From contig JAIFMH010000034.1 in the NCBI GenBank assembly GCA_020048595.1, positions 1 to 38,693 of the forward strand: a DNA stretch of 38,693 bases, read 5' to 3'. This stretch comes from Bacteroidota bacterium. GTDB lineage: Bacteria > Bacteroidota > Bacteroidia > Bacteroidales > UBA4417. Made by a program: the position numbers and the translations under genes. Below, one piece after another: positions 9,122 through 27,632 of the stretch (positions within the stretch are counted from its first letter, which is position 1; each line of letters begins with the position of its first letter). The notes below the pieces were generated by a model that saw nothing but the letters and a program-made list of their open reading frames with translations, had not been told where the DNA came from and searched no databases.

Positions 9122-12100
9122 TCATTGCTTGTCCTTATTGTTGATCTTCTGTGTGTCCAGCCATTCTCCATCGTGGAACCGGACGATAACAGGGGCGGAC
9201 TGATAGTTCTTACCGGGTTTGCCACCGTTGCAGTCCACGAAGTTGAATTCGACTCCTATCGGCAGACCGCGCAATTCGTCGGGCCGGGGCCAGTTGCCGT
9301 CTTCGCGGAGGCTGGCGCCGCTCGGAAGCAGGCGCATTTGGGCCACGATCGCGCGGTTATCCTGATCGTGCGCACCGATATACACCCAAGGACCGGGAGT
9401 TGGTGACCGAAAGGCGATCCATGGCTCGCCCAAGGTCACAGGCAGGCCGTCCCCCCCGAATTGCCTACCCATTTCCTGTCGATAGCCGAAGAACTGCTCT
9501 GGTGCGTCGCCGCCAAACGAGTAATTCTTGAAGGTGCGGAAGATGTCCGCCTTGATGGTGGTTTTCTTCGCATCGAGATGCACGAACTGGGTGGCTTTGA
9601 GTTGGCCCTGATTGGTCCCGAGACCCTGGATGCCGCCGAGGACGGGGAAATATGTTTCGCCTACCGCATACGGTGTCCGGTTCTCGATCGTGAGGTTGAA
9701 CACGACTCCGCCCCCAACCAGTTCGAGTGTCTGCGTGACAGACACATCGTATTTCTCGCCGAGGTAATTGGCGAGGGGACCTGTCCAGGTCAGCACAAGC
9801 TTTCCGCCTTCCATACGGGCGGACGAGAGCTTCTGCCTGGCACCGATGATCCAATTGGCCTCGATGTCCTGCCACGGCTCCTTGCCCGGCAAGGTCAGCC
9901 CGAACATCCAGCTTCCGGCAAGGCGCGGTTCGAGGATCAGGTCGAGCTTGCTCCGCTTGTCATGAATTCGGGTTACAGAGCCATTTTTGCGACTGACCTC
10001 AACCAATATGTTCCCGTCCTCCAGCTTGACGGAGCGTGCCGGATTAAAAGCCGGCAACTCTGGCACCGGCGTTTCATTCGGCACACGGGCGATGGCCAGA
10101 CGTTGTGGAACGGTTGCACGTGTCGGTACAGTCTTTTCCTCCAACTCCTCGACAAACAGAATCTGCTCCGCCGCAATGGTGATGGAAGCCGGCAGATTCA
10201 CGACATGGCTTTCGAGGCCGGGCTGATGAATCCTCACGCTGGGCGACCTGGCCTTGTCGAATCCAGTCACCGCCATGGTCTGCGGGTCCATCTTCGCGTT
10301 GGTCAGAATGCAGGCCCGGAGGGCGGTGCGGCGATTGCGGAAGACGTTGAACTCAACTCCTGCCGGCACCGGCTTTTCCATTGTCACTCCATTGTGACCA
10401 AGCACTTCTCCCTGGAAAACCGTTTCCTGAAGTTGGTCCCGGATGCGCTTCACATCGCGGATATGCTCGTTGAGTCCTTCCATCACTTTAAGGTCCATTC
10501 CTCCGGAAAATTTCATTGGTGTGATCATGACGTGGTGACCGTCGCGGACCAGGTTGTTGACCAACAGGTAGTCGTAGGCATCCTTCAGACCTTCCGTCTC
10601 GGCGAGCTCGGGGAAGAGGGCGCGGGTGAAGGATCGGGGAGTGCCGACCCACCACTCGCTACTGCCAAACTGCAACATACGGTCCCAGTTGCATTCAAAG
10701 GACATCGCCCAGTTGGGGTTGTGCTTCCGGCAAGCAGCGAGGACTTCTTTGGATTGCAGGATCGCGCCTTCCCACGTCGTCATGTCCGGGCTCATCGGTG
10801 ATTCGGGATTGAACGAGAGAAAATCCGGGTACATCTTGTCCACATGCACGCCGTCAGCGCCAATTTTGGCCAGTGCCTCGAACTGGTCGGTGATGATCTT
10901 CCGGAACTGCGGGAAACCGAGGTCCGCCTTGGTCATCAACCGCGGATATCCCATCCGGCCCCAAAGCGAACCGTAACCCCAGCCCACGTTCCAGGTGAGG
11001 TCGCCGTTTTCCTTCCACTCGCGATACTTTTGCAGCTCGTCCTGATACCAACGGGTGTTGAGCGTCATCACCTGATAGTTGACGAAGAAGTACACCTTGA
11101 CCCCCATTTTGTGACAGGCACGGATGCCCTCCTCGAGGTCCTTCCAGGTGCCCAGGCGCGGATCGGGCGTGTAGTAGGGAAGCCCGTTGTCATGGCCGCA
11201 GGTCTCCCAACCGCTGATCTGAACGGCGTTGATGCCGTAATCCTTGGCCGCTTTCGCCCAGCGGGGGATGTCTTTGAAGGTGTAGTTGATGGTTCCTTCC
11301 GGCAGCATGAACATCGTGAACACAAAGAACGACTCCTTGCGAATCCAGTCCTTTCCGGGGTCGGCCAAACCAAAGGTGCGCGTGAAGAAATCCCGATAGA
11401 CGCGCCCCGCCTCGCGCCAGCCGCCATCCACGATCTTCAACACCACGGGCGAGCCGTCGAACGATTCGCCCGGCGGCGTGAACGGCAGGTGCCGCACTGA
11501 GGCGAACACATCCTTCACTATCCCTGTGCCTTGTTCCTCGAACCGGAATTCCTTGGCGCGGGCGATTTCATCGTGGGAGGCGAAATAAAGCGATTTTCCT
11601 GCTGACATACTCTCGATGCAGGCGAAGGACATGCTTGCCTGCCCGGGATATTCGAAAGTCGATATTCCAAAGGGTGGTTCGACTTTCTTCGATGTAAATC
11701 CTCGGACCGGCGCCCATAGCATGCCATCGGTTGGTTTGCCGGGCGAACCGAACTTTGCCAACCCGCCAATAAGCGGATAAGAAGCTGAACGGATCTTGCC
11801 CGCCGTGCGGTTGTCCAGATGCAGCCTGAACTCCAGAGCGTTGCCGGAGGTCTGCACCTCCATCCTTACGGCGACCTCGTGTGCAGCGCCGTCGGTGTCT
11901 TTCATCGGGCCGTTCCACTTCAGTGTAATCCCGCCAGACCTGCGGGTGACTTCAGTTAGGTATTGCTCCCGGCCCAGGATCGTCACCGTCTTGTTCCCCG
12001 GCAGGCCGAGTTCCAGACGGAAGTTCCCGGCCAATTCCGGCGACGATGACAACTCGATGCCACTTTGCTTGTCGAGGATGCGGCTGATCCGGCCGAAGAC

Positions 12101-12244
12101 CGAATCGATTTCGACTACTACTTGTTCGTTCCCGAGAAGAACAGGTATTTGGTTTGCCTTATTAACGGCCTGTGCTTTAATGATACTAAAAGCAATCAAT
12201 AGTAATGTGACACTAATCAATATGAAATTGAATGTTCTTCTCAT
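9122..12244 (-). CDS. GC-rich secreted 1040-aa protein: beta-sandwich N-module plus TIM-barrel-like glycoside-hydrolase-like module, followed by a second truncated copy of the N-module (unclassified family)
   Basis: Long ORF with an AT-rich signal-peptide region (MRRTFNFILISVTLLLIAFSIIKAQA) that switches to GC-rich codons. The central GINAVQISGWE...MGVKVYFFVNYQ...GADGVHVDKMYP looks like a TIM-barrel GH-like domain. The N-module (about residues 38-290) recurs at about residues 740-1030. The start overlaps the stop of 12241..14244 by ATGA. Confidence 0.8.
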   Translation of the reverse strand: MRRTFNFILISVTLLLIAFSIIKAQAVNKANQIPVLLGNEQVVVEIDSVFGRISRILDKQSGIELSSSPELAGNFRLELGLPGNKTVTILGREQYLTEVTRRSGGITLKWNGPMKDTDGAAHEVAVRMEVQTSGNALEFRLHLDNRTAGKIRSASYPLIGGLAKFGSPGKPTDGMLWAPVRGFTSKKVEPPFGISTFEYPGQASMSFACIESMSAGKSLYFASHDEIARAKEFRFEEQGTGIVKDVFASVRHLPFTPPGESFDGSPVVLKIVDGGWREAGRVYRDFFTRTFGLADPGKDWIRKESFFVFTMFMLPEGTINYTFKDIPRWAKAAKDYGINAVQISGWETCGHDNGLPYYTPDPRLGTWKDLEEGIRACHKMGVKVYFFVNYQVMTLNTRWYQDELQKYREWKENGDLTWNVGWGYGSLWGRMGYPRLMTKADLGFPQFRKIITDQFEALAKIGADGVHVDKMYPDFLSFNPESPMSPDMTTWEGAILQSKEVLAACRKHNPNWAMSFECNWDRMLQFGSSEWWVGTPRSFTRALFPELAETEGLKDAYDYLLVNNLVRDGHHVMITPMKFSGGMDLKVMEGLNEHIRDVKRIRDQLQETVFQGEVLGHNGVTMEKPVPAGVEFNVFRNRRTALRACILTNAKMDPQTMAVTGFDKARSPSVRIHQPGLESHVVNLPASITIAAEQILFVEELEEKTVPTRATVPQRLAIARVPNETPVPELPAFNPARSVKLEDGNILVEVSRKNGSVTRIHDKRSKLDLILEPRLAGSWMFGLTLPGKEPWQDIEANWIIGARQKLSSARMEGGKLVLTWTGPLANYLGEKYDVSVTQTLELVGGGVVFNLTIENRTPYAVGETYFPVLGGIQGLGTNQGQLKATQFVHLDAKKTTIKADIFRTFKNYSFGGDAPEQFFGYRQEMGRQFGGDGLPVTLGEPWIAFRSPTPGPWVYIGAHDQDNRAIVAQMRLLPSGASLREDGNWPRPDELRGLPIGVEFNFVDCNGGKPGKNYQSAPVIVRFHDGEWLDTQKINNKDKQ
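9150..12135. other. GC-rich compositional island 1 (putative horizontally acquired coding body)
   Basis: An abrupt shift by eye from AT-rich to GC-rich sequence. Long arginine/proline-rich antisense shadow ORFs (9461..10801, 10844..11500) occur only here. Boundaries are approximate (tens of nt). Confidence 0.7.
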
Positions 12245-14244
12245 TTTTTCTTTGTTTCTATGTATTTTATTATCGATTCTAAAACAATACCTGATTCAAA
12301 AGGCCTTAGATTGTGGGGGTTTGGTACAGCATTCGGTCCGTAAAATTCATTAACCATACCAAACATCTGAACTATGTTGCTATCTATCAGCGTGTTAAAA
12401 ACATTATCTTTTCGTTTGTCGTTCAGTTCTGTAAGACCATACAGTAAATAGCCCATGGTATTTCCGCTAAATCCTTCGGTTTCATTGGGTACCATTGGTA
12501 AAAATCCGGTCGTTGGGTTGATATATTCAGCCATACTTTTTGCCGTAATTTTTTCCATTTCATTCGTTAGTTCAACTCCAAACCACAAGGGCATAAGTCC
12601 AAAATTCGTAACACGATAGTCAAAAAAAGTGTTATCCCTTCTTTTTGCCCAATCCAAATATCCTAAATCGCTGTTAAAGAAGTTTATTTCAATTGATTCG
12701 AGCAGTTTTTGTTTGTAATTTTCATAGGTTGATATTTCCGGTTTCAAATGACTTAATTCCAGGTATTGAATATAAAAATCCAATGAAGCGACACAGGAGG
12801 CAAGTGATGTTAATGACCAAATATCCTTATGAAAACCCGGAAGGCCAATCGAAATTCCATTTATAATGCCAATAATTTCACCATCTTTCTTCACAGTGTA
12901 TTGTTCGGTTTCATCGCCATTAAATGGTAGTAGCCAATTCTCTTCTTTGGCATGTCGAAGCTGGATATCTATGGCGTATTTTAGTAAATCATGGTTTTGC
13001 TTTAGAAAATTCAGGTCATGATTGATTTTATATATATCACGCATGAGCATCACAACATATGCCGGGCATTCTGCATATTGATTACCGCCATAATGGGTAT
13101 GCGAATCATATCCCATTTGAACAGAATTGGGTATCTCTTTAAATACCCCGAATTTATGGTTTGTAATCTCAATAAACTTTTCTGCCTCCTTTGTAAAACC
13201 ACAGCTTAACAAACCTCGGCATGCGCTATATGAATCACGGATATATGAAAATGCATAGCTTCTGACGCCGGGAATAAAACCACCGCAACGATTTTGTTGC
13301 ATCTTAATGCCAATCAGCATCGACTCAATAATGTCATTGACTCTTTGTTCACGAGATTTGGCAATATTTCCCTGTTTCAGCCAATTTTTCCAATATTTTA
13401 CCGTAGCATCAATATCCTTCCGAATACTCCTGGCATGAATATTTTTCAGGGAGTCGTCCAATTTTTCTGTACTTTCATCAACGAAATAGTGCATTAATGA
13501 AACTTCCTTATTCCCGGTTGTTGGAATCGTTATTTCTCCTGTGGAAAGAATGGGTGTAGTGTCAGTAGTACCAATAAATGGAAGATCTTTAAAAAGCACT
13601 AACAAATACCTGTTTTTCCAATTTCCACCATCTCCGTTTCCAAAAAGAGGAGCTGTTGTATCAGCATGGAATAAAACACCGGAATTCTTATATAGTGAAG
13701 ATTTAATATTTTCTCCCGGAGTAATCTCTGAAGACACTTCCACTACTTGCGTATGTTTCCCTGAATTATTTTCAAAGACAATATGCCTGACATACAAAGG
13801 GCTATTGCTTACAACAAAGTCTAACACATGAATTTTAAGGTCACCCACCTGAGAGCAACCATAATACATGCCGGTACCTTTTAATCTGTGGATATTTACA
13901 GTAAGAATCTCCTGTTTTTTATTGATTTGTAATAGTAGTTTCGCAGACTTGATAAAGTTTGGAGATGTATAATCCGGTCCTATTAAAAAATCCAGGTTCC
14001 CATGTATATCCCCGCCACCTCCAATTATTCCATTTCCAATAAAATATCGCTCGCTATTCGTATTTAACCATTGCACTGTATCAGGTAAATTGATAGCTCC
14101 AGCTTTTATTTTCTTTTGACTGAATTCGTTACATCCGCTAAAAAGCAAAATGCCCAGAATTATAATAACCTGAAGTCTCATTTGTTTTAAGATTCCAGTA
14201 AGACGTATTAAAAGTGATGCAAAAATTATTGATATGGTTTTCAT
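12241..14244 (-). CDS. Six-hairpin (alpha/alpha)6 glycosidase-like lipoprotein (GH15-like?); likely true start at ATG 14181
   Basis: The internal start MRLQVIIILGILLFSGC gives a lipobox (FSGC). The later GGFIPGVRSYAFSYIRDSYSACRGLL resembles the Y-x-W/I-RD motif of glucoamylase-type six-hairpin enzymes. AT-rich, native-looking. Confidence 0.7.
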   Translation of the reverse strand: MKTISIIFASLLIRLTGILKQMRLQVIIILGILLFSGCNEFSQKKIKAGAINLPDTVQWLNTNSERYFIGNGIIGGGGDIHGNLDFLIGPDYTSPNFIKSAKLLLQINKKQEILTVNIHRLKGTGMYYGCSQVGDLKIHVLDFVVSNSPLYVRHIVFENNSGKHTQVVEVSSEITPGENIKSSLYKNSGVLFHADTTAPLFGNGDGGNWKNRYLLVLFKDLPFIGTTDTTPILSTGEITIPTTGNKEVSLMHYFVDESTEKLDDSLKNIHARSIRKDIDATVKYWKNWLKQGNIAKSREQRVNDIIESMLIGIKMQQNRCGGFIPGVRSYAFSYIRDSYSACRGLLSCGFTKEAEKFIEITNHKFGVFKEIPNSVQMGYDSHTHYGGNQYAECPAYVVMLMRDIYKINHDLNFLKQNHDLLKYAIDIQLRHAKEENWLLPFNGDETEQYTVKKDGEIIGIINGISIGLPGFHKDIWSLTSLASCVASLDFYIQYLELSHLKPEISTYENYKQKLLESIEINFFNSDLGYLDWAKRRDNTFFDYRVTNFGLMPLWFGVELTNEMEKITAKSMAEYINPTTGFLPMVPNETEGFSGNTMGYLLYGLTELNDKRKDNVFNTLIDSNIVQMFGMVNEFYGPNAVPNPHNLRPFESGIVLESIIKYIETKKK

Positions 14245-14271
14245 TGTTTTTATAATTTAAAAGGTTTCAAT

Positions 14272-16260
14272 TTACCGGCCAAACCCGAATGGTTTCTTTA
14301 CCGTTTACGGGGGGCGCCGGACGTTGCATGTATACGGCGCAGTCGCGTCCGAGCCGATCTTCACCCCGTCCACATAGAACTCCACGTTCGTGATGGCACC
14401 GTATGACGTTGTCGCCGAAACCTTGATAGGCGCCGTAGTCCCAGCGGTCACCGTCGCACCGTTTGTTGAAAATCATGTTCATGGCGCCTCGATCCTGACG
14501 CGCTGCACCTGGAAGACCGCCGGGGTCGGCAGCGGCACGTCGACGGCGGCATCGACGCCCTTGTTGTCGGTGACCCCGCGCCAGACACCTGTGCGCAAGG
14601 ACAGCCGCTGCAAGGTCTTGGCGTCCGCCTCGGCCACGGCCAGTTCCTGCGCCGCGCCGCCATTGACATGCACGTTGTAGCGGCCCGCCTCCGCATCGGC
14701 GACGATGACCAGGGAGAGCTTCTCTCCCGCCGTGTATGTGCCGAGGTCAACGGCGTTGTTCCCGTCCGCCGCCTGCACCGTGCCGGTCTCAGTCAGCACC
14801 ACACGCACCGGCCGGCGGCTGGCGGGATCGCAGAGTTCGATCTCCAGCCGGGCGTTGGCCTGGGCCGGCGTCAGTTCCAGTTCGACCCGAACCTTTGCCG
14901 ATTCAGGGAACACGCGCACGGCGCGGGCGTAGTCGAAGGGATCGCCGTCGCGCAGTTCCAGGCTGCGTTTCCCGGCGTTCTCGACGACAGTCACAGGTGC
15001 CCACTTCGGGCTGTAGAGATTCCATCCCGGCACGACGGCGTTGGGCGTGGCCTTCGTGAAATCGTCCGTCGGGAACGCGGTCTCGTCCGGTTTGACCGGC
15101 AGAGCGATGCGCGACACCCAGATGTCTTCCTTGTTGACGCTGTAGACCAGCCACAGCGCCTGCTTCGTGTCCGCGAACGTACCGTCATCGGCCCACTCGG
15201 CCAGCCCGCGCACGTACTGCGCGCCGGGATTCTTGTACTTTCCCGGATAGCGAAGCGGGGGAAGTTCGCCATGGACTACCCGCAGGTCGCGGAATTCGCG
15301 GCCGTCATCGCCGTGAACGATGACAAGGGGATAACGGATTTGCCGGCCCGGGTCAGGGTTGTAGGCAAGGGCGAAACGGCCATCGTCCGTTCTTTGCCCC
15401 CAGATCTTGCCAGATCCAGCCAGCAGCGACGGTGGCTGCACCGGCCGTGACCAGGTCTGGCCATTGTCATCCGACAACGTCACAAGTCCCATCTTGCACA
15501 GACCGACCAATGCCCCGTCCTGGCGGTGGTAGAAGCAGAGGGCCTTGCCGAACTTCCAGAAACCGACGCTGTTCAACTCCTTGTCGGCATGCCACTTCAT
15601 GCGGAGGTCGCCGAGATAGACACCGTAGTCCTGCTGTTCCAGGAGAAGGTTGCTTCCAGCGGCTTCGCGGCAGGCCGCCACAAAACCGGCATCCGTTGAC
15701 GTCTCGAAAGACGGCAGCAGATCCGGCAGCGGGGCGATCAAGGTGAACACCTCGCCGAGCTGATGATCGGCCGTGATCTCCCGGACCAGCAGCACCTTCT
15801 TCTCGGCCTCGCTGACCGTGCTGTCAGCCGTATTGCCGGCGCAGAACGCCAGCATCCGCCCGTTGGTGGCGCGGTAGAAGTAGAAACGAGCGGCACAGGA
15901 GACCTTGCGCGGGAAGAGATCAGCCGGCGCGGACCACTGCCAACCGTCCCTCGATGTCGCATATACGACCTTGTAGGGAGGAACGTCCTCGTCCTTCGGC
16001 GTCATGGCCCAGGCGGCATAGATCCGGCCCTTCCAGACCGCCAGGTCCTGGTGGTGGGCGTAGGTCCAGCCGTCGCCATCGGCCTGCTCCGGCTGGTTGC
16101 GGCTCGCACGCAGGATCTGGATGTTCTGCACGCCGACGACGGGTTTCAGCCCGCCATCGGGCAACTGCAGGTTGAGGCGGCCTTGTTCATTGCCGCTGAC
16201 CACGATGGGCGTGCTCTTTTCCTGCGCGGCGAGTGGCGATGGGGTCATCAAATTGAGGGC
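14272..16260. other. GC-rich compositional island 2
   Basis: Same visual criteria as island 1. Shadow ORFs 14668..15450 and 15763..16281 occur on the + strand. The lower boundary falls inside the Ig-like remnant and the upper boundary inside the signal peptide. Confidence 0.7.
14305..14478 (-). pseudogene. Truncated bacterial Ig-like (Big_7-type) domain remnant, in frame with the upstream gene behind two TGA codons
   Basis: Reading on in the frame of 14479..16290 gives ...RIEAP TGA T TGA FSTNGATVTAGTTAPIKVSATTSYGAITNVEFYVDGVKIGSDATAPYTCNVRRPP TAA. The pattern NGAT-x-TAG...VEFY-x-DG-x-x-(I/L)G-x-D-x-x-APY is the first ~55 aa of an Ig-like domain and is cut off where the GC-rich DNA ends. Track ORF 14267..14482 is a different frame over the same DNA. 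Confidence 0.5.
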
Positions 16261-16290
16261 GATAATCATCATTATCAATAATCTTTTCAT
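14479..16290 (-). CDS. GC-rich secreted sialidase-fold/BNR-like propeller protein with a C-terminal LamG/jelly-roll-like domain
   Basis: 603 aa with signal peptide MKRLLIMMIIALNLMTPSPLAAQ. It has Asp-box-like motifs (SRDGWQWS, SDDNGQTWS) and a C-terminal beta-sandwich-like region. The body uses GC-rich codons and the first ~10 codons are AT-rich. Confidence 0.75.
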   Translation of the reverse strand: MKRLLIMMIIALNLMTPSPLAAQEKSTPIVVSGNEQGRLNLQLPDGGLKPVVGVQNIQILRASRNQPEQADGDGWTYAHHQDLAVWKGRIYAAWAMTPKDEDVPPYKVVYATSRDGWQWSAPADLFPRKVSCAARFYFYRATNGRMLAFCAGNTADSTVSEAEKKVLLVREITADHQLGEVFTLIAPLPDLLPSFETSTDAGFVAACREAAGSNLLLEQQDYGVYLGDLRMKWHADKELNSVGFWKFGKALCFYHRQDGALVGLCKMGLVTLSDDNGQTWSRPVQPPSLLAGSGKIWGQRTDDGRFALAYNPDPGRQIRYPLVIVHGDDGREFRDLRVVHGELPPLRYPGKYKNPGAQYVRGLAEWADDGTFADTKQALWLVYSVNKEDIWVSRIALPVKPDETAFPTDDFTKATPNAVVPGWNLYSPKWAPVTVVENAGKRSLELRDGDPFDYARAVRVFPESAKVRVELELTPAQANARLEIELCDPASRRPVRVVLTETGTVQAADGNNAVDLGTYTAGEKLSLVIVADAEAGRYNVHVNGGAAQELAVAEADAKTLQRLSLRTGVWRGVTDNKGVDAAVDVPLPTPAVFQVQRVRIEAP

Positions 16291-16325
16291 AAAAACAATT
16301 TTTTAGTTAAAAATCTAATTTGAAT
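16211..16325 (-). repeat. Leader module copy A (5' proximal region plus 27 signal-peptide codons), direct repeat of 27553..27667
   Basis: Hand alignment gives 72/80 identical nt over the coding part, plus ~35 nt upstream with a 2-nt indel. Peptides are MKRLLIMMIIALNLMTPSPLAAQEKST and MKRLLIMMIIAYNLMIPSPLTAQEKST. Similarity stops abruptly after EKST. Confidence 0.9.
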
Positions 16326-16385
16326 ATTATGTACCGGTAATACTCCTAGTTCATACTTTCTCCTTGTTGTTGTTTGTAGTTTCCT

Positions 16386-16419
16386 AAGTTCATTGGCCAA
16401 ACCGGAAGCTAATGAACTT
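16386..16419. other. Stem-loop (9-bp arms aagttcatt / aatgaactt, 16-nt loop) in the intergenic region
   Basis: Arms are perfectly complementary by inspection, and no U-tract follows. The function is unknown. Confidence 0.25.
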
Positions 16420-16586
16420 CCTCCTGCTCAATGTGGTTTGCAGCATTTATGTAACGTTTTTTATCAGGTTCACGCATAATTATTCACTTCCAAAATCTTG
16501 CACAGTCTTTTCTAGTTTATAAATTCCAATACTTCAAGAAAATTCATTTTGCCCATGACTTAAACTCTGAAGTCATATTTTTAGTT

Positions 16587-17624: not shown

Positions 17625-17737
17625 ATTCGTATCGTCGCTCCTTTGCTACGCATTATCTTAATTTTTTCTTAAACATTATACCTCTCATATATTCTGACTA
17701 TTATTTTTTATCCTTTACCGATTTGTTGAAGAAGCAT

Positions 17738-17962
17738 TTAGGGGTCATTCCAGTTAGTATTGTGCGATTTCCCTTTTTGTAAACCAGCTGCAATAAAAAA
17801 ATTACTGAAACCAGCCGAGTTTAAACTATCATTCAGGCCCTGCCAAACGCTTTCGATTGCCCCTGTTTTAAGAGCCTCCTGATAATTTGCCTGAGCCAAA
17901 CAAGTCAGATTAATAAATAGTATGAGTTGTAATGCAATGATTTTTCGATTGGTTGACTTCAT
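17738..17962 (-). CDS. Small hypothetical secreted protein, or an N-terminal gene remnant
   Basis: 74 aa with a signal-like N-terminus (IIALQLILFINLTCLAQA). No recognisable domain. Confidence 0.25.
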   Translation of the reverse strand: MKSTNRKIIALQLILFINLTCLAQANYQEALKTGAIESVWQGLNDSLNSAGFSNFFIAAGLQKGKSHNTNWNDP

Positions 17963-17986
17963 TTTTTTCGTTTTAATAAACGATAT

Positions 17987-18903: not shown

Positions 18904-20096
18904 TCAGAAAAAATCATTCCCATCAGACTTTGATTTTGGCCTCACCATAAACAATAGGATAGCACATATTATCATGATTAAAGCTGCGAACTGATACATA
19001 TTACTGAGATTTATGTTCGAGTCACGCAAAACCCCACCGGCATATATTGCCAAAGCATTGGCATCATATTGGAATCTCCGAACGCTCGTGTAAAAGAAAA
19101 TATCATAAAAGCAAAAATTGCAAGAGGTAGAATTGTAGTCCAGCTTGCTAAAAAAATGCAAGGTGCAGCTATTAAAAGGCCAATAGCAGGAACATGAATC
19201 CTTGAAAGGCGGTTTTTCCGGCTCCACCTGTCTGCAATAAAACCGCCGAAAAGTAATCCACCTATTGCTGCAGGATATAAATAACCAGTTGCATAAAGTC
19301 CGGCAATACCCTGGGAAAGGTTGAAATTTTCCTTATAGTATGTAGGGAGCCATCCCATCACTAGCCAACCGACAACTCCTAAAAGACCCCAGTATCCAAG
19401 CATCAAAAGAAAAGATCTCTTCCTAAACAGATCCCTTATACCTACAAAAAAGTTGATTTTACGCTCGGCTTTTCTTGTAATATTGTTTACAACATTTTTT
19501 GGTGGATCCTTAAGAAAAACCGCGACAACTATTGAATACACTATCCCCGCAACACCAAAAGAGATGAATAAAAAGTTCCAGGAATGATTTTCGGCAAGTA
19601 ATCCACCAAGAAATCCCAGACTCGATCCAACAAAAATTCCTGTCATATGAATTCCTGTTGCCAGGGAACGGGTAGAACTTCGGTGGTAATCTGCTATAAG
19701 TGCCAACGCTGCAGGAATATAACCTGCTTCACTTATACCCATTAATATCCGGGTAATCAATAATTGTTCAAATGTTCTTGAGTAAGCTGTCAACCATGTT
19801 ACTGCTGACCAGACTAATAAGCTTACGATAACAACACGGCTGCGATTAAATCTATCTGCAAGAAATCCTGCAAAAGGACTAAATATCCCATATGTCCATA
19901 AAAAAGCTGAAGTTAGAAGACCGAATTGAGCATCACTCATCGGAATTGCGTCGATAATTGAAGATCGCATAGTAGTGATCATTATACGATCGAGATAATT
20001 TAAGGCACCTATAAAAAAAAGTAATACAACTACAAGCCATGCGCCTTTTGGTAATTTTGATTCCGGAGTTAGTATCTCAGATGGAGTAATAGACAT
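18904..20096 (-). pseudogene. MFS transporter (ACS/hexuronate-type) with an internal deletion and frameshift near the 3' end
   Basis: Frame 1 (19011..20096) encodes TM1-10 and ends ...FGDSNMMPMLWQYMPVGFCVTRT*. The expected TM11-12 (..ALAIYAGGVLRDSNINLSNMYQFAALIMIICAILLFMV..) is encoded in another frame (18904..~19065). The usual ~20 aa between MPxLxQ and the (I/L)Y-x-GG-x-LRD segment appear to be missing. Confidence 0.5.
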
Positions 20097-20219
20097 TTGC
20101 GTTTGGTTTAAATTTAGAAAACTCTCTTTAAATGGTTAATCACTGACTCAGCCAGATTCTCTCCTTATCTGATAAACGATTGTTAATTATTTAGACCGTC
20201 ATCGAAACATGAAATTACC

Positions 20220-21143: not shown

Positions 21144-21206
21144 TAATTATCCTATTTAATTTGTATTGTTTTTTTATTCACACCCTCTTTCAACAGTTTA
21201 TAGCAA

Positions 21207-22013: not shown

Positions 22014-22077
22014 AATTAAAAACTCCTATATTATAATTTAAATTTAGTAAGTATATTTTCCCCTGTTCGGCTTTATA

Positions 22078-22887
22078 TTACCAGGCTGTCCAGCCACCAT
22101 CGATAATAATGTTTGATCCTGTCATATAGCTTGATGCATCGGATGCTAGAAGTATTAATGCCCCTGCCAACTCCTCCGGTCTTCCTGCTCTTCCCATCAT
22201 AGTTTTTGCATGTAATTTCTGTTTGAAATCTTCGGTCAGGTTCCCTTTTGGGTTGGGAAATGGTCCTGGTGTAATGCTGTTTACTCTGATATTTTTACCG
22301 GCAAGATGGCCTGCACAGTATCTTGTAAATTGCAATACTCCGGCTTTCGCCGCACCGTACTGTGGTGGATTGTTCTGCCCGCTCGTACCATAAATCCCCG
22401 GATCAGGAGATACTATCCCGTACATAGATGCGATATTGATAATATTCCCTACTCCATTTTCATAAAAATACGGGAGCACCTCCCTTGTGCATCTGAATGT
22501 TATATTAAGTGTACCATCTATGCCTGTTTCCCAGATTTCATCGGACATCTCGTCGATGGAATGAGTGGCAACCTTTTTCCCGCCAGCTCCTCCTCCGTAA
22601 ACCGCACAGTTAATTAAAACATCGATCCTGCCGTGCAGGTTTTTTACCTTTGCAAACATTTCCCTTGTTGAATCTGTACTTGAAAGATCACATTTGAGTA
22701 CTTTCAGATTCTCAGCCAGATCATCTCCACCTGCAATTTCAACAGGCTTTTTTTCTGCAATGTCAGCTATCACTACTGTCCCTCCGGCTTCAAGAAGGGC
22801 TTTTGACATGGCACTTCCAATGTAACCGATGCCTCCGGTTATGAGAATAACTTTACTTTTTAGGCTTAATAAATCTTTAATGTTCAT
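22078..22887 (-). CDS. SDR-family oxidoreductase
   Basis: ITGGIGYIGSAM (TGxxxGxG) together with the YGAAKAG catalytic YxxxK motif. Confidence 0.9.
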   Translation of the reverse strand: MNIKDLLSLKSKVILITGGIGYIGSAMSKALLEAGGTVVIADIAEKKPVEIAGGDDLAENLKVLKCDLSSTDSTREMFAKVKNLHGRIDVLINCAVYGGGAGGKKVATHSIDEMSDEIWETGIDGTLNITFRCTREVLPYFYENGVGNIINIASMYGIVSPDPGIYGTSGQNNPPQYGAAKAGVLQFTRYCAGHLAGKNIRVNSITPGPFPNPKGNLTEDFKQKLHAKTMMGRAGRPEELAGALILLASDASSYMTGSNIIIDGGWTAW

Positions 22888-22899
22888 AATATCATGTCA

Positions 22900-24534
22900 T
22901 TAATGGGTGCGATCTAGAAATACGAAGGAATATATGTCAGCGTCTCTGATTACGAAACGCAGGCGCACCGGTTTCCCGGCAAGAGTGGAGAGATCGGGAT
23001 TTGCCTTCCAGCTTACAGCTCTTTCGAGATTGTCTCCATAAATCTCATGACAATCGGCTAAACTAAAGCCGGGTAAAGACCGACCATCAATATCCTGAAC
23101 CTCAATACGAACGGAGCCTGCTGCAGAGGTTGAGACATTCAGAAACAATGTATTTCCGGTAAACGTGATAGGTTTGGTGACCATCTCACCCCCGACAAGC
23201 GGAGCATGCAGGGATACAAAACCATCGATGCGTATGTTGTATCTGCGGATGATGGCCCCTCTATCTTGGTTTTTCCTTTCAAGGAAATATAACGAAAGTT
23301 CAGGTGGAGCATCCTCTATAGCGGAGCTGGTTTCCACAATACCCCAATTCTGGTACATGTCGCCATAGAACCAGCCGCCTTTATTTCTCAACCCAGGGCG
23401 AAGAAAAGCCTCAGGCCAGATACGGAAATTATGTCGGTCGCGGCTCGACATGATCATACCCTCTGTTAGAGCTGTACCCAGTCTGCGGGTTTCTTTTGCA
23501 CGTGTATACCTGTAATCATATTCCGGCAGGGCCTTTGCTGACTCCGTCCAGCCACGATCGATGTAACGTGTTGGAAAACCTATCAACAGGTGGGGTGCAC
23601 GGTAATATGGTATAATCTGATTCGTATACAACTCGCTAACCCGGCCCGATGGATACTCCTTCCCCGCAGTATCTTTCGCAGACACCGATAAAGCATTGTG
23701 ATTGCCCGGATCAACGATGGCTGAATAGCCGAGGAACACGGGGTCTGTCCAATTGAGGAAATCATGCGATGTCTCGGTCATGATATCGCGCCCTTTATCG
23801 CTTCCGGAGTTTATGAGATTCCAATTACCCTCAGCCCCTCCCCTAAAGGTCCGATGGTATGCACGATATTCACCTTGCAGCTCATCCCAGAAAGCGAGAT
23901 TCTGTGAATCGAAGTCACCCTTGGTGACAACTGGCACTGAATCCATTAACTTCCAATTGATACCATCAGATGACTTATATGCATACAGCCCTTTTTTTCC
24001 AACTGTTATTCCGAGTGCTTTGTACTTTGCGTCTGCCATGCACTCCGGATTTGTGTCAATGAAGGGTGAAAAACTTTCATTACCTGAGTCCAGAATAATA
24101 TTGTTCTTTTTTGATCCATTATATGAAAAGAGACCCAGCTCCGGCCTTATCCAGTGGATGCCATCTTGACTTTCAGCGTAACAGTAAACATTACGCGTGG
24201 TCGGCCGGTCTTTTCCATTAAGATAGGAAATATGCCTGCCACGGTAGTACATACGGTATTTAGTACTATCCTTAAAAACCGTTACATAGCCGGTTCCATT
24301 ACCTTCCCATGGTTCATTAGTCTCTAGGGCAATGTCCTGTGGAGTTGGATGTTGCATTTGTAATTCGGTCTTACCCGAAAGACGTTCAATAAGGTAGTCG
24401 TCCACAAATAATTCCCTATTACTGCCTAATCTGATTATTTCGTTGTTAACAGTCTTTTCTGAACATTTGTAACCTGATATGGTAATAAAGAGTACAATTA
24501 ATAAAAGTTGGTTTTTCATATAAATGATTTTCAT
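22900..24534 (-). CDS. Secreted beta-propeller-type putative glycoside hydrolase with a C-terminal jelly-roll domain (unclassified family); AT-rich homologue of 26157..27632
   Basis: Shares with 26157..27632 the blocks ELFVDD, CYAES-DGI-W, F-PF-DT-P---DA-YKAL, ELYTNQ--PY-RAPH, FLRPGL, DGF-S, GGE--TKP--FTG--LF-N-ST-AAGS-R-E-QD, LPGF and GKPVRLRF--R--D-YSF-F. The start may be the second Met (MKNQLLL). Confidence 0.8.
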   Translation of the reverse strand: MKIIYMKNQLLLIVLFITISGYKCSEKTVNNEIIRLGSNRELFVDDYLIERLSGKTELQMQHPTPQDIALETNEPWEGNGTGYVTVFKDSTKYRMYYRGRHISYLNGKDRPTTRNVYCYAESQDGIHWIRPELGLFSYNGSKKNNIILDSGNESFSPFIDTNPECMADAKYKALGITVGKKGLYAYKSSDGINWKLMDSVPVVTKGDFDSQNLAFWDELQGEYRAYHRTFRGGAEGNWNLINSGSDKGRDIMTETSHDFLNWTDPVFLGYSAIVDPGNHNALSVSAKDTAGKEYPSGRVSELYTNQIIPYYRAPHLLIGFPTRYIDRGWTESAKALPEYDYRYTRAKETRRLGTALTEGMIMSSRDRHNFRIWPEAFLRPGLRNKGGWFYGDMYQNWGIVETSSAIEDAPPELSLYFLERKNQDRGAIIRRYNIRIDGFVSLHAPLVGGEMVTKPITFTGNTLFLNVSTSAAGSVRIEVQDIDGRSLPGFSLADCHEIYGDNLERAVSWKANPDLSTLAGKPVRLRFVIRDADIYSFVFLDRTH

Positions 24535-24604
24535 GATTTATTTTTTTATAACATGGATTTGTCGGGAGAGTGTTCAAGCCATTTTAATGGAGTATTTAAA
24601 TCCA

Positions 24605-26005
24605 TCAAAAATTAGCTGCATTCTGAACCTTAAATACCCAGGCATACTGGCACGGATTTGTAGCTGGTGACATCGCAGGCGGAGTAATAATCAGTTTTTT
24701 ACCTGAAACCGAATATTTTACTTTGCCTTTAAAACCAAGCATTGAAACCGATTTGGTAGAACCAATTCCTTCAACTACAATCGGTTTATCCTGCCATTTG
24801 GTAACAATCACATACAAATCAGCGCCTTTTTTGGTGAAATAAACAGTCGTTTCAGGTTTTACAATAGGAGCTTTGTCCCATTTGCGAGTGCTATAAATGG
24901 CTTCGCCGTTTACTTTCAGCCATGCGCCCATATCGGACAGGCGTTGTTGCATGATCTCAGGAATACGACCATCTGCTGTTGGCCCAATGTTGAGTAACAG
25001 GTTTCCACCACGAGCAACCTTGTTTATCAGGATATGTACCAACTCTTCTGAAGTGGAATAATCCTCCAGCACTTCGTTCCGGTTGTAACCAAACGAACCA
25101 GCTGTACCCCGGCATTCTTCCCAAGGATGTTCAAATTTGGTGTCGTTCGCATTACCCTCGTACACCAAATCGTATTCGGTGGTATAATATCCGCCATGTT
25201 TGCTGCGGGTTTCTTTACCCCAGCGGTCGTTTACCACTACGGTGTTTTTTACGGGAGATTCGTTATAAAGCCAGGCCAAAAATTGGGTGCTTTTCCATGC
25301 TTCACTTGGGTGATCCCATTCTCCGTCGGAATAAACCACGTCGGGTTCATAGCGGGTCACCAGATCTTTCATCTGCGGAATCATGTGATCGTCAACGTAT
25401 TTGCCAAGGTCAGATTTATACAAAGGGTTGAACCATTCGTAAAGCGAATAATAAAAGCCCATGTGCAATCCACTTGCTTTCACCGATTTGGTCAGATCGC
25501 CACACAAATCGCGGTGCGGACCAACATCAACTGAGTTCCAGTTCCAGCTCTGTGCACTAGGCCAAAGTGTAAAGCCATCGTGGTGTTTGGAGGCCAATAC
25601 AATGTATTTGGCACCTGCTTCTTTAAATCGTTCAGCCCATTCGTCGGGATTGAACATTTCAGCTTTGAACTGATTGGCAAAATCCTGGTATTTAAAATCT
25701 TTTCCATACACCTGATTGTGATAGTCGATAAAAAAATGTTGTACTTTGGATGGGTTTACCAAACGGCTCCAGTACCATTCGGCATATTGTTCGTAAACAC
25801 CCACCTTATCGCGTTTGGTTGGACTATAAGCCGGTACTGAATACAATCCCCAAAAAATAAAAATCCCGAATTTGGCATCTTCGAACCATGTTGGAACAGG
25901 ACGACTGTCGATGGATGACCAGTTAGGCTGGTAGGTTTTTTGTGAAAACCCATGCAGTAAAGCAATAAAGAGAAATACAAATACTAAAATGATTGATTTT
26001 TTCAT
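24605..26005 (-). CDS. Alpha-L-fucosidase, GH29
   Basis: Signal peptide, then YQPNWSSIDSRPVPTWFEDAKFGIFIFWGLYSVPAY, AEWYW and KYIVLASKHHDGFTLWPS, which are classic GH29 motifs. Confidence 0.9.
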   Translation of the reverse strand: MKKSIILVFVFLFIALLHGFSQKTYQPNWSSIDSRPVPTWFEDAKFGIFIFWGLYSVPAYSPTKRDKVGVYEQYAEWYWSRLVNPSKVQHFFIDYHNQVYGKDFKYQDFANQFKAEMFNPDEWAERFKEAGAKYIVLASKHHDGFTLWPSAQSWNWNSVDVGPHRDLCGDLTKSVKASGLHMGFYYSLYEWFNPLYKSDLGKYVDDHMIPQMKDLVTRYEPDVVYSDGEWDHPSEAWKSTQFLAWLYNESPVKNTVVVNDRWGKETRSKHGGYYTTEYDLVYEGNANDTKFEHPWEECRGTAGSFGYNRNEVLEDYSTSEELVHILINKVARGGNLLLNIGPTADGRIPEIMQQRLSDMGAWLKVNGEAIYSTRKWDKAPIVKPETTVYFTKKGADLYVIVTKWQDKPIVVEGIGSTKSVSMLGFKGKVKYSVSGKKLIITPPAMSPATNPCQYAWVFKVQNAANF

Positions 26006-26026
26006 ATTTAAATATTTTTGTGTTAC

Positions 26027-26043
26027 TTAAATATCTAATTTGA
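26027..26043 (-). promoter_or_regulatory. Conserved 17-nt upstream box (gene orientation TCAAATTAGATATTTAA), also at 16307..16323 and 27651..27667
   Basis: 16/17 identical to the boxes upstream of the two GC-rich genes. All three lie 16-21 nt upstream of the ATG. It contains a TAGAT(T/A)TT stretch loosely resembling the Bacteroidota -7 element TAnnTTTG. Confidence 0.35.
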
Positions 26044-26051
26044 TTTTTTTG

Positions 26052-26070
26052 AACCGGAAATACTCCGGTT
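26052..26070. other. Short hairpin (aaccgga aatac tccggtt) at the lower edge of GC island 3
   Basis: Perfect 7-bp arms. No U-tract follows on the minus strand, so it is not a canonical terminator for the upstream gene. Confidence 0.25.
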
Positions 26071-27605
26071 TGTGGGCAAAAGAGGGCAGGCTGGCCTCCA
26101 CTTCTTTCAGGAAATCGACGATTCCGTTGGAGGTGCAGGCCGAACCCGGTCTCCTTCTACTTGCTGTGGAATCGGAACGAATACACATCGCACTCGCGCA
26201 TCGCGAATCGCAGGCGCACCGGTTTCCCTGCGATGGCAGCAAGGTTCGGGTTGTTCTTCCATCTCACCCGCCGCTCGATCGCGTCGCCGATGACGGCCTG
26301 GCAATCATCCATGCCGAACCCCGGTAGTGCCTGGCCCGAAGCGTCCTGGATCTCGACCCGCAGCGAGCCGGCTGCCCCGGTGCTGAAGTTCACGAACAGG
26401 GAATCACCTGTGAAGATCAGGGGCTTCGTCAGCAGTTCGCCGCCGTCGGCGCCGGCGTTCACGGAGATGAAGCCGTCGGTCCGCAGGGTGTAGCGATCGC
26501 CGCTTATTGTATTATAGATGGACATCTCCTCGGGGCCTGTCGGCACGACATTCAGTGATACGTAGTTCGCCCTTTGTTCCCATCTTGCCGGATCCAAGCC
26601 TGGCCGGATGAAGGCCTCCCTGAAGGTGCGCTGATATGAAGCGGAACCGGCGCGCATCGTCATGAGCATGATGTCGGTGGAGCCGTAGTTGCCCTCCACC
26701 GGCTCTCCCATCTCGATGCCCATCATGAATCTACTCGGCAATGCGACATAGATATGCGGCGCGCGGAAATAGGGATGCGTCTGATTCGTGTAGAGTTGTT
26801 CGCCCGGAAGATTGGCATCGGTGTCGACCAGCGGAGTCCAGGTGATGAAGTCGGTCGAGGTCGTCCGACCGACTCGCCGCTGGAACTTCTTGTACGGATC
26901 CGTCTGTGGAGGCTCGATCATGCCCCAGGTGCGGACAAAACAGACATAGCAGTTCTCGGCCTCGGACCAGAAGGCCGGACTCGACGAATCGAAGGGCCAG
27001 GGCGTTCCGGGGGCCTGATTCGGCGTTTTTATGACAGGCGCGTCCTGGATCTTGCTCCAGTGGATACCATCGGCGCTCTTGAAAGCGATCAGTCCGGTCC
27101 CTCCCGATCCCGCCAGCGCTTTGTACCGGGCGTCCGGTGCGACACCGGGCCGGGTGTCGAGGAAGGGGGTGAAGTTGTGGGTGAACGGAGCCTGGCGGGC
27201 CAGGATCACATTGCCGCCCTTCGAGCTTTGGATCTTTGTGATGCCCAGGTCGGGGAACGTCCATTCGATACCGTCGCGGCTTTCCGCATAGCAGGTGATC
27301 TCGTTCGGTTCGTTGTCTGCGTTGCGCTCCTGTCGCCCCTTATCGTACCCGGGAATGTCGGAACGATAGTACGCCCGGTAGAGATCCCCGTCCTTGATGA
27401 TGGTGCCGTACGCGCCGCTCGGCAGGGGACTCCTGGCGGGCGCTTGCCTGACCGGCGCATGCAATCGGAACGCGACGCCCGTCATGCGCTCGACGAGCAG
27501 GTCGTCGACGAAAAGCTCCAGTCGTGTGCCTATCTCAACGGGTTTCATGCTCGTGCTCTTCTCCTGTGCGGTGAGTGGCGATGGGATCATCAGATTGTAG
27601 GCGAT
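26060..27605. other. GC-rich compositional island 3
   Basis: Same visual criteria as the other islands. Shadow ORF 26754..27623 lies on the + strand. The GC-rich tract extends ~100 nt beyond the stop codon. Confidence 0.7.
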
Positions 27606-27632
27606 GATCATCATTATCAATAATCTTTTCAT
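26157..27632 (-). CDS. GC-rich secreted beta-propeller-type putative glycoside hydrolase with a C-terminal jelly-roll domain; xenologue of 22900..24534
   Basis: 491 aa with signal peptide MKRLLIMMIIAYNLMIPSPLTAQ, shared with 14479..16290. The motif blocks listed for 22900..24534 are conserved (roughly 40% identity by eye). The body uses GC-rich codons. Confidence 0.85.
   Translation of the reverse strand: MKRLLIMMIIAYNLMIPSPLTAQEKSTSMKPVEIGTRLELFVDDLLVERMTGVAFRLHAPVRQAPARSPLPSGAYGTIIKDGDLYRAYYRSDIPGYDKGRQERNADNEPNEITCYAESRDGIEWTFPDLGITKIQSSKGGNVILARQAPFTHNFTPFLDTRPGVAPDARYKALAGSGGTGLIAFKSADGIHWSKIQDAPVIKTPNQAPGTPWPFDSSSPAFWSEAENCYVCFVRTWGMIEPPQTDPYKKFQRRVGRTTSTDFITWTPLVDTDANLPGEQLYTNQTHPYFRAPHIYVALPSRFMMGIEMGEPVEGNYGSTDIMLMTMRAGSASYQRTFREAFIRPGLDPARWEQRANYVSLNVVPTGPEEMSIYNTISGDRYTLRTDGFISVNAGADGGELLTKPLIFTGDSLFVNFSTGAAGSLRVEIQDASGQALPGFGMDDCQAVIGDAIERRVRWKNNPNLAAIAGKPVRLRFAMRECDVYSFRFHSK

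Follow-up and report, generated by a model that had tools for sequence, protein, structure and literature searches.

The contig JAIFMH010000034.1 of assembly GCA_020048595.1, 38,693 nucleotides (nt) long and analyzed here at its full length (the window), derives from a Bacteroidales bacterium of the UBA4417 lineage and is a SusC/SusD polysaccharide-utilization locus (PUL) of a low-GC freshwater member of the Bacteroidota. Three of its genes, all on the minus strand and named g1 (9122..12244), g2 (14479..16290) and g3 (26157..27632), combine a GC-rich body with an AT-rich start, and their leaders are the subject of this work. L-numbers (L001-L040) denote comparison contigs and P-numbers (P0001, P0440, P0448) comparison proteins. 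The features that make up the three genes and their borders are the following (aa, amino acids; UTR, untranslated region).

9122..12244, minus strand: g1, chimeric gene for a 1040-aa DUF6259 protein (Pfam), with a GC content at third codon positions (GC3) of 0.72
12154..12244, minus strand: g1 leader, codons 1-30 (MRRTFNFILISVTLLLIAFSIIKAQAVNKA), host-type, GC 0.31
14272..14478, minus strand: g2 tail, GC-rich non-coding DNA with a dead immunoglobulin (Ig)-like domain fragment (..ITNVEFYVDGVKIGSDATAPYTCNV)
14479..16290, minus strand: g2, chimeric gene for a 603-aa sialidase-fold enzyme like glycoside hydrolase (GH) family GH143 (BT_1020-type propeller and sialidase-like carbohydrate-binding module, CBM)
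16210..16290, minus strand: g2 leader, 27 codons (MKRLLIMMIIALNLMTPSPLAAQEKST), a second-hand copy of the chimeric g3 leader
16303..16346, minus strand: g2 upstream element, a degenerate palindrome and AAATTAGATTTTTAAC (a candidate -7 promoter box of Bacteroidota type) and, after it, an A/T-rich 5'UTR
26023..26156, minus strand: g3 3' unit, GC-rich 3'UTR of about 90 nt, palindrome CCGGAGTATTTCCGG (26054-26068) and box AAATTAGATATTTAAG (26026-26041)
26157..27632, minus strand: g3, chimeric gene for a 491-aa predicted five-bladed beta-propeller and beta-sandwich protein (GH43/32/130-like fold)
27552..27593, minus strand: donor-derived part of the g3 leader, codons 14-27 (LMIPSPLTAQEKST), the tail of a native verrucomicrobial g3 signal peptide
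27601..27665, minus strand: host-type part of the g3 leader, with promoter-like box, A/T-rich 5'UTR and codons 1-11 (MKRLLIMMIIA)

The window as a whole has a GC content of 43.5%, falling to 40.0% outside three GC-rich blocks (44.8% in 1-9000 and 38.3% to the right of 12300). A first-pass annotation of the letters had put the background well under 40%, which slightly overstates its AT-richness; the difference from the blocks that it reported does hold, as these stand at 58.3% (9150-12135), 64.1% (14272-16260) and 60.7% (26060-27605). The long antisense shadow open reading frames (ORFs) noted at 9461..10801, 14668..15450 and 26754..27623 lie inside the blocks as described, but not exclusively so, since a 206-aa shadow ORF at 5080..5700 falls outside them. 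GC3 is 0.716 in g1, 0.810 in g2 and 0.774 in g3, against a mean of 0.370 (standard deviation 0.053, maximum 0.448) in 20 neighboring genes, and the comparison of codon usage that had been proposed thus separates the three genes from their neighbors by z-scores of 6.5, 8.2 and 7.6, respectively. For leucine, arginine and isoleucine, g1-g3 use CTG/CTC, CGC/CGG and ATC, as do genes on donor-type contigs, whereas the neighbors prefer TTA/CTT, AGA and ATT. The reported passage from AT-rich first codons to GC3-rich codons in an unbroken frame is present in all three genes, with AT-rich starts of about 32 codons in g1 (a signal peptide) and about 10 codons each in g2 and g3; in g1 the GC3 reaches 0.9 only from codon ~46. 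Also as reported, the ATG of g1 overlaps the stop of the upstream AT-type gene by ATGA, at 12241-12244.

The three products are predicted to be glycan-degrading enzymes. Pfam assigns Beta-prop_BT_1020 and Sialidase-like_CBM domains to g2, which matches the N-terminal sialidase-fold module of BT1020 (PDB 5mqr) with E = 2.7e-87. A search with the g3 sequence gave no Pfam or PDB match; its structure model, of medium confidence (predicted local distance difference test score, pLDDT, 72), resembles the five-bladed propeller glycosidases of the GH43/32/130 type and ends in a C-terminal beta-sandwich. Sequence comparison of g1 with the PDB returned marginal matches only, and the NCBIfam search nothing useful. 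All copies of the genes are intact, with ratios of non-synonymous to synonymous substitution rates (dN/dS) of 0.14-0.49 (0.25 for g1 and 0.33-0.44 for g3).

High-GC donors had been suspected from composition, and the bodies of all three genes do find their relatives on contigs of 60-66% GC. The closest match is that of g3, with 94.8% nucleotide identity over 1426 nt to L016 and L017 (66% GC) and equally 94.8% to L023, a 27.6-kb contig of a Chthoniobacteraceae metagenome-assembled genome (MAG) with 62% GC; it is also ~90% identical to L013, L024 and L025, which are Verrucomicrobia/Verrucomicrobiales contigs of up to 138 kb with an even 66-67% GC. At the protein level g3 is 86-91% identical to genes of MAGs that bear the labels Chthoniobacteraceae, Verrucomicrobia and Verrucomicrobiales; the contigs in question are 28-138 kb long and evenly 62-66% GC. 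The synonymous divergence (dS) between g3 and its donor-type copies is only 0.10-0.22 and its GC content (0.612) is the same as theirs (0.613-0.616), so that no amelioration is visible. The body of g1 is 88.4% identical over 3025 nt (window 9155-12153) to L020, a 60% GC contig, and for g2 the corresponding match is L039 (63% GC; 81% over 1742 nt), whose neighboring genes are typical of bacteria of the Planctomycetes-Verrucomicrobia-Chlamydiae (PVC) group. The best protein relatives of g2 reach 75-81% on metagenomic contigs like L039, and we found no other record of the exact g2 protein of the window. All three bodies are thus far closer to a lineage of different composition than to genes of host composition. 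On these similarities, g1-g3 are very probably glycan-degrading genes that have recently come from high-GC PVC-group bacteria and were each joined in frame to a host-style start. In passing, an IS3-type OrfA (HTH_Tnp_1) lies immediately downstream of the donor-type g1 in L020 (3531-3833).

The junction is most sharply defined in g3, where a nucleotide-by-nucleotide comparison matches positions -30 to +32 to an AT-type fucosidase-like gene of L009 (MKRLLTMMIIALIMVNTFTINAQ..), while from +40 on the sequence is that of the native verrucomicrobial gene in L013, L024 and L025, nucleotide for nucleotide (..AAGLLLMMTPSPLAAQEKSTSLKP.., ..GLLLMMTPSPLAAQEKSTS), leaving a crossover zone of ~7 nt between host-type and donor-type sequence. 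By this comparison the g3 leader is itself a chimera, in which the 5'UTR and 11 codons are of host type and the last 14 codons come from the donor's own signal peptide. L007 holds a second copy of the L009-type fucosidase-like gene and also matches the first 1889 nt of the window at 90%, which places the host-type gene ~0.9 kb past the left end of the window, on the same strand. The L009 gene (3794-5002) is intact, with 385 aa from the leader ATG; in the L007 copy (about 3716-3913) a one-A difference in a poly-A run right after the signal peptide shifts the frame, which could be a sequencing error or reflect a slippage-prone tract.

The leader of g2 repeats that of g3. A direct repeat of 99 nt, 88% identical, links 16205-16303 (g2) with 27547-27645 (g3) and spans ~13 nt of upstream sequence together with 27 codons, MKRLLIMMIIA[L/Y]NLM[T/I]PSPL[A/T]AQEKST. 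Similarity of g2 to L039 and to all close homologues starts at 16211, exactly after codon 27 (PIVVSGNEQ..), and in place of this leader the closest homologues have a PA14 domain or GC-rich signal peptides of their own. As the g2 leader includes a piece of the signal peptide of g3's donor, g2 received it already chimeric and second-hand.

In g1 the homology to L020 detected by BLAST begins at 12153, which is codon 31, and nucleotide identity is 40-48% over codons 1-40 and 83-98% beyond. Alignment of the replaced stretch (MRRTFNFILISVTLLLIAFSIIKAQAVNKANQ) to the signal peptide of 7853..9013, the adjacent resident gene (MKRTVNLTWIIATLLLIGFKSTDAQTVKGAKN), scores 59, compared with 26 at most for other signal peptides of the window and 17.4±3.6 for shuffled sequences. 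The same leader is present in the g1 orthologue of L019, which is 89% identical, and in protein P0448. Codons 41-60 of donor-type g1 are also GC3-poor (0.5), which explains why the visible GC3 switch at codon ~46 comes later than the true junction. Across g1, g2 and g3, then, similarity to the donor is lost abruptly within coding sequence while the frame is kept, the donor homologues have unrelated, GC-rich N-termini, and the replacing segments are homologous to recipient-type sequence in g3 (the L009 gene) and in g1 (the neighbor 7853..9013). There have been at least three separate fusions, in line with the repeated recruitment first proposed. As a separate observation, the GC3 of g1 orthologues descends from 0.75 in the donor-type L020 and 0.72 in the window to 0.62 in L019 (5215-8355) and 0.53 in L021 (459-3593), the latter two on low-GC contigs; this may be an amelioration series or the outcome of separate acquisitions.

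The leaders extend upstream of the start codon into a short element of 16-44 nt that recurs at 16303-16346, 27643-27665 and 26023-26066 and thus brackets g3. It comprises AAATTAGATTTTTAAC with a palindrome ahead of it, and precedes g2, g3 and the AT-type fucosidase gene directly downstream of g3. Its box TAGATTTT sits ~25 nt upstream of the ATG and resembles TAnnTTTG, the consensus of the -7 promoter element in Bacteroidetes. The palindrome CCGGAGTATTTCCGG, ~20 nt upstream of the promoter-like box, has a stem of 5 bp (CCGGAgtattTCCGG) and is the only palindrome found; equivalents occur in L003, L005, L006, L011 and L037. As a terminator it would be too weak, and it lacks a T-run behind it; it could be a binding site for a regulator.

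At the 3' side, similarity of g3 to the sampled donors stops 11 nt beyond the stop codon, and the 3' boundaries of the GC-rich DNA lie outside coding sequence, ~200 nt past the stop in g2 and ~100 nt past it in g3. The g1 protein is homologous to its donors up to the C-terminus, although at the DNA level the match to L020 reaches only to 9155, which is 31 nt inside the stop codon (9122-9124); the 3' boundary is placed near that codon, its position being approximate. In L003, L006 and L011 the g3 3' unit stands immediately ahead of the leader of the next GC-rich gene. The inner 118 nt of the g2 tail (14330-14446) are replaced in L003 (2394-2553) and L006 (782-941) by an unrelated GC-rich remnant of 160 nt, between identical flanks.

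The grafted starts have the composition of resident initiation regions. Between -30 and +40, g1-g3 have 20-23% GC and predicted minimum free energies (MFE) of -3.7 to -7.1 kcal/mol, close to those of resident genes (-3.1 to -5.8 kcal/mol); native donor starts of g2 and g3 have an MFE of -15 to -21 kcal/mol, and for g3 alone the comparison is -4.9 kcal/mol against -19 to -21 kcal/mol. The annotated donor start of g1 in L020 has an MFE of only -5.8 kcal/mol, no worse than resident genes. Initiation in Flavobacterium johnsoniae depends on low mRNA structure and on upstream A residues at -3, -6, -12 and -13 (PMC6847099), and Bacteroidia ribosomes do not recognize Shine-Dalgarno (SD) sequences (PMC7797042). 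The g3 leader has A at -6 and -8 to -13 and T at -3, a partial match to these determinants.

The resident genes around the grafts include adjacent SusC- and SusD-like genes, linked enzyme genes (GH29, BNR, GH143-like and DUF6259) and an extracytoplasmic function (ECF) sigma/FecR regulator, as well as genes of sugar-acid catabolism, the PUL core spanning 27976..34888.

7853..9013, minus strand: BNR/sialidase-like gene, AT-type, whose signal peptide (8915-9013) is the resident paralogue of the g1 leader
22900..24534, minus strand: resident g3 paralogue, AT-type, 544 aa, 41% amino acid identity to g3
24605..26005, minus strand: GH29 alpha-L-fucosidase gene, AT-type (Pfam)
27976..29460, minus strand: SusD-like gene (SusD_RagB and SusD-like_3 domains)
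29482..33021, minus strand: SusC-like gene (STN, CarboxypepD_reg and Plug domains; cluster members are named SusC/RagA)
33138..34187, minus strand: FecR-type anti-sigma factor gene, PUL core
34322..34888, minus strand: ECF sigma factor gene, PUL core

The protein cluster of the fucosidase (24605..26005) at at least 90% identity includes one protein named Prolixibacteraceae bacterium. A synteny search with the 667-aa AT-type gene found only a 51% match in Saprospiraceae, and no 'empty' ancestral locus in a named genome.

A scan for the leader found it at the head of g2-type genes, g3-type genes and a GC-rich 534-aa gene, in at least ten different upstream contexts, and also without cargo, as a 45-aa ORF in L002 and as 10 codons in L001. 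Among g2-type genes the frame is kept through different linkers after AQEKST (PIVV, GIMV, GMFEAGESAPIVV and GMCEAGESATRAAPIVV). The 534-aa gene is a paralogue of the 544-aa gene, and reads AQEKST-AGESATLAVAPLRIG.. in L011 and AQEKST-GIGEAGKSATRAAPAAVAPLRIG.. in L037. The scan of genome contigs matched one contig only, and among 1.84 billion cluster representatives phmmer matched the 30-aa leader to two proteins only; as representatives of the cargo families probably carry native N-termini, the latter figure says little about the diversity of cargo. Several contigs also break inside or right after the leader (L001, 2.6 kb with a leader copy at each end; L005, L010 and L012), which fits a repeat present in multiple copies in these genomes.

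The comparison of syntenic loci that the first-pass annotation had called for was informative: strains that match the window at 98-99.4% in their AT-type flanks have different GC-rich content, with breakpoints at the leader or the g3 3' unit. L003 has two extra GC-rich genes (545 and 348 aa) exactly at 16346/16347 of the window, an indel of 2.9 kb. In L011, window 22895-26005, with the 544-aa gene and the fucosidase gene, is replaced by the leader and the GC-rich 534-aa gene. L002 has lost its cargo and keeps the leader ~40 nt from a gene of the short-chain dehydrogenase/reductase (SDR) family, and L004 has a different upstream context, with a DDE transposase fragment (8803-9348) between the g3 unit and the fucosidase ATG. 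In L008 (2461-2700) the AT-type 544-aa gene closes with the 3' end and 3'UTR of g3 in place of its own final ~15 codons (window 22900-22960 and 26157-26231), the crossover lying at a 20-nt stretch (GGGAAACCGGTGCGCCTGCG) identical in the two genes. Two remnants in the window correspond to genes that are complete elsewhere.

16351..16411, minus strand: remnant of a 5' region of a second kind (aactacaaacaacaacaaggagaaagtATGAA), which in L003 and L037 heads two GC-rich genes missing here
27672..27774, minus strand: remnant of 103 nt of a 631-aa gene that is intact in L004 (4294-4396, 99% identical)

By this match the second remnant marks a deletion whose end coincides with the 5' edge of the leader element of g3. 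The second shared 5' region, aactacaaacaacaacaaggagaaagtATGAAGATGAGACAT, heads the 545-aa and 348-aa genes in L003 (5760-5800 and 7395-7445), where it is tandemly duplicated; an SD-like AAGGAG within it should go unrecognized by Bacteroidia ribosomes, and the 348-aa gene encodes an amidohydrolase-like protein with a twin-arginine-type signal.

Variation extends into the g3 gene. Copies with the leader and copies with the native signal peptide, 94-98% identical, occur intermixed, and the gene is a mosaic: g3 of the window and of L004 differ by 5.7%, compared with 1-2.3% in their flanks, and the last 240 nt of the L004 copy are 100% identical to the copy of a Chthoniobacteraceae MAG. The mosaic suggests repeated import of alleles.

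Leader-bearing GC-rich genes also occur in L037 (1-21461 of a contig of 113,934 bp), which has 60% GC over 21 kb, and likewise in L038 and L022, the copies in the three contigs being 96-98% identical. The L037 cluster is flanked on both sides by fragments of RHS repeats, with an ATP-binding cassette (ABC) sugar transporter (GC3 0.84) nearby, and the native genes of this contig start GC-rich. A short repeat family is common to L037 and contigs L023 and L018. Most simply, this would be read as a possible back-transfer, in which leader-tagged genes returned to a genome of verrucomicrobial type by insertion into an Rhs gene. The fusions pre-date the contig described here, as they are common to several strains and to a high-GC contig, and they need not have formed at this locus.

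L037 also holds a miniature inverted-repeat transposable element (MITE) of 163 nt with terminal inverted repeats of 26 nt (GGAAGTAGGGACAGACTGATTATTCG / CGAATAATCAGTCTGTCCCTACTTCC), in five copies within 21 kb (3377-3539, 6288-6450, 11673-11835, 14469-14631 and 15315-15477), and it occurs in L022 and L038 as well; one copy lies directly upstream of a leader ATG, one in the other shared 5'UTR and one in an RHS coding remnant. A scan of genome contigs for this element gave a match in L022 only. L022 (the same as L040, JBKDUV010000174.1) and protein P0440, both leader-bearing, carry the bin labels 'Planctomycetia bacterium' and 'Verrucomicrobia bacterium'; either high-GC organisms truly hold leader-tagged genes, or fragments of the Bacteroidota locus have been mis-binned by composition.

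We consider it likely that the window shows foreign genes grafted into a low-GC PUL under a chimeric leader that has been reused. Each gene lacks the promoter, ribosome-binding region and N-terminal part of the export signal of its donor, g2 also a whole N-terminal PA14 domain, and an AT-rich 5' region of Bacteroidota type is joined in frame instead. The ~150-nt chimeric leader (upstream box, A/T-rich 5'UTR and 27 codons) was copied onto g2 and onto a third GC-rich gene, which is present in sister strains, and g1 carries a divergent version of its AT-rich neighbor's signal peptide. The earlier suggestion of a fusion to resident promoter and signal peptide sequence is borne out for the g1 leader and for -30 to +32 of g3, but not for codons 14-27 of the g2/g3 leader, which are donor-derived; similarly, acquisition boundaries lie within coding sequence at the 5' end of all three genes, as had been claimed, but outside it at the 3' end. 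The graft may supply a local promoter, an unstructured, A-rich, SD-independent initiation region and the start of a signal peptide accepted by the Sec system, and we somewhat favor this rationale of expression and export. The intact ORFs, the dN/dS of 0.14-0.49 and the host-like, unstructured initiation regions are consistent with putative expression and export of the chimeric proteins. Multiple copies of the leader, together with the g3 3' unit, could further serve as homology handles by which recombination inserts, deletes, swaps and re-exports GC-rich cargo, which would explain why near-identical strains differ at exactly those points; we are evenly divided on whether the leader acts in this way. 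More tentatively still, the leader might be a portable 'express-and-export' module and docking handle, with which a freshwater Prolixibacteraceae-like population continually samples enzyme genes and alleles of co-resident Verrucomicrobiota, moves them between loci in cassette-like swaps and hands leader-tagged genes back to a high-GC genome, in a two-way pool across phyla that is upheld by recombination within coding sequence and operates with no dedicated mobile element.

Several points weigh against these proposals. The putative promoter box only resembles TAnnTTTG, and the role of the leader as a handle is read from the positions of breakpoints. The cargo types seen with the leader are only g2, g3 and the 534-aa gene. 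The label Prolixibacteraceae for the host hangs loosely on one protein name in a single 90% cluster. Assemblers that mix co-occurring g3 alleles could yield part of the mosaic, and as every sequence compared is a metagenome assembly, the junctions rest on contigs. Finally, the leader-bearing genes in a 60% GC contig mean that the fusions may have reached the locus ready-made and that transfer may have run in either direction.

If they did so, the fusions would have arisen elsewhere, in other Bacteroidota or in the lineage of L037, and come by ordinary homologous recombination, with the leader repeat as a by-product of duplication. This alternative overlaps with grafting under a reused leader and disputes only the site of fusion and the role of the leader; that the fusions are common to many contigs and, as g1 orthologues in L019 and L021, to more distant relatives is in its favor, as are the leader-bearing genes of L037, L038 and L022 in their GC-rich context. 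We nevertheless regard it as unlikely, because the AT-rich half of the leader matches the L009 gene, whose L007 copy neighbors the left end of the window, the g1 leader matches an adjacent resident gene, and strains 98-99% identical break at the leader. Moreover, amid GC-rich native starts, the L037 cluster lies between RHS fragments and MITEs and looks inserted there.

That reads of a high-GC organism were joined to a low-GC contig during assembly is highly improbable. The metagenomic origin of the data, the contigs that end at the leader as at a repeat in an assembly graph, and the exact g2 protein known only from the window would all be compatible with such a chimera. All junctions are in frame with a proper signal peptide, however, and six chance in-frame joins are not credible; the 3' flank of g2 and the 3' unit of g3 are reproduced in L003, L004, L006 and L011. 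The junctions recur in L003, L004, L006, L008, L010, L011, L019, L022, L037, P0001 and P0448, and the junction-bearing sequences come from JGI metagenome records (L002-L008, L010, L011), an NCBI whole-genome shotgun (WGS) metagenome (L009, L012), a third-party annotation (TPA) MAG (L001), Logan (L019) and an ENA assembly (P0001, 98% identical, in a cluster of 59 members). The presence of the same in-frame junctions in other assemblies largely refutes this explanation. Least probable of all is that whole genes were transferred with AT-rich starts native to the donor or acquired by point mutation under selection: the GC3-poor codons 41-60 of donor-type g1 might be cited for it, but it is refuted by donor comparisons, in which the first 10 codons have a GC3 of 0.8-0.9 and N-termini are unrelated, identity rises from ~40% to ~90% within a few codons, and the non-homologous genes g2 and g3 share an 88% identical leader and upstream region.

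Grafting of foreign genes under a reused leader is best placed by comparison with known systems. Genes are already known to enter PULs horizontally, as in the porphyranase and agarase loci that conjugative elements carried from marine Bacteroidetes into Bacteroides of the gut; there too, foreign carbohydrate-active genes join a SusC/SusD locus and vary by strain. The present case differs in its donors from another phylum (Verrucomicrobiota/PVC), with a GC gap of 20 points, in the transfer of single genes rather than islands, in a 5' boundary within coding sequence, and in the lack of integrase, tRNA and integrative and conjugative element (ICE) genes. The window holds no tRNA and no match to an Rfam family, and there is no integrase or transposase Pfam domain among its ORFs of at least 150 aa, the scope within which the first-pass annotation was right to find no flanking mobile genes and to set the locus apart from islands and ICEs; it had overlooked only that direct repeats do sit at the blocks. 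These repeats are the leader and promoter-like element, not att sites, and a genomic island or ICE was rejected as an explanation.

Bacteroides insertion sequences (IS) with outward promoters switch on foreign or silent genes such as cfiA, cepA and erm, and both they and the leader overcome foreign promoters or initiation regions that fail in Bacteroidia; here the conserved part is ~60-150 nt, and the graft enters the coding sequence and gives the start of a signal peptide. An IS-borne promoter was rejected, as no IS is attached to the leader. Integron cassette arrays likewise bring varied cargo under one expression module, with presence or absence of cargo by strain and 'empty' sites. An array of this kind was also rejected: no integrase (IntI), attI or attC was found, the only palindrome is the 5-bp stem, each cargo has its own leader copy, and the in-frame protein fusions with variable linkers fit general or illegitimate recombination.

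Surface-protein families headed by a common 5'UTR and signal peptide, and expression-site shufflons (the Mycoplasma vlp/vsa system and the Bacteroides fragilis SusC/SusD shufflon), shuffle paralogues within one genome by site-specific invertases acting on inverted repeats. In these systems too, mature proteins that differ from one another follow a near-identical signal peptide and upstream region, and recombination takes place at the shared 5' part. The cargo here consists of non-homologous foreign enzymes, and a site-specific shufflon was rejected, the leader copies being direct repeats on one strand, one for each gene, with no recombinase found nearby. Polymorphic toxin genes (Rhs, CdiA-CT) keep a conserved N-terminal homology arm and displace their 3' cargo, which, as here, differs in composition and is swapped between strains; in the present genes the conserved part is only a leader of ~27 codons and the cargo is glycoside hydrolase-like. 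Comparable too are bacterial glycoside hydrolases acquired by eukaryotes (nematodes, fungi and ciliates), which gained host signal peptides, so that a transferred enzyme body was fitted with an export signal of recipient type; the grafts described here differ in that they passed between bacterial phyla, are recent (dS ~0.1), repeat one leader and are possibly bidirectional. What is unusual at this locus is the recent cross-phylum transfer, the precise in-frame replacement of 5' ends and the serial reuse of a chimeric leader on non-homologous cargo, with cassette-like variation between strains. A literature search on signal-peptide replacement after transfer into Bacteroidota gave no account of this pattern within a limited collection.

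Among the obstacles to gene transfer into Bacteroidia, expression and export are considered major ones; bacteria of this class have unusual promoters and SD-blind ribosomes. The locus appears to show a natural bypass, in which foreign enzymes receive a short host leader by in-frame grafting and the leader is then reused. The native and chimeric 5' ends are concrete, testable constructs and offer a natural design rule for high-GC enzymes in Bacteroidota. In series of lake metagenomes the leader may also serve as a marker to trace genes that have passed very recently between Verrucomicrobiota and Bacteroidota, with the warning that binning by composition may misplace genes and short contigs of this kind.

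Elsewhere in the window, the gene of a major facilitator superfamily (MFS) transporter at 19011-20096 encodes 361 aa, compared with 419 aa in L003; a segment of 76 nt is missing (deletion at 19050/19051) and the C-terminus is out of frame, so that the gene is probably a pseudogene or the product of an assembly error.

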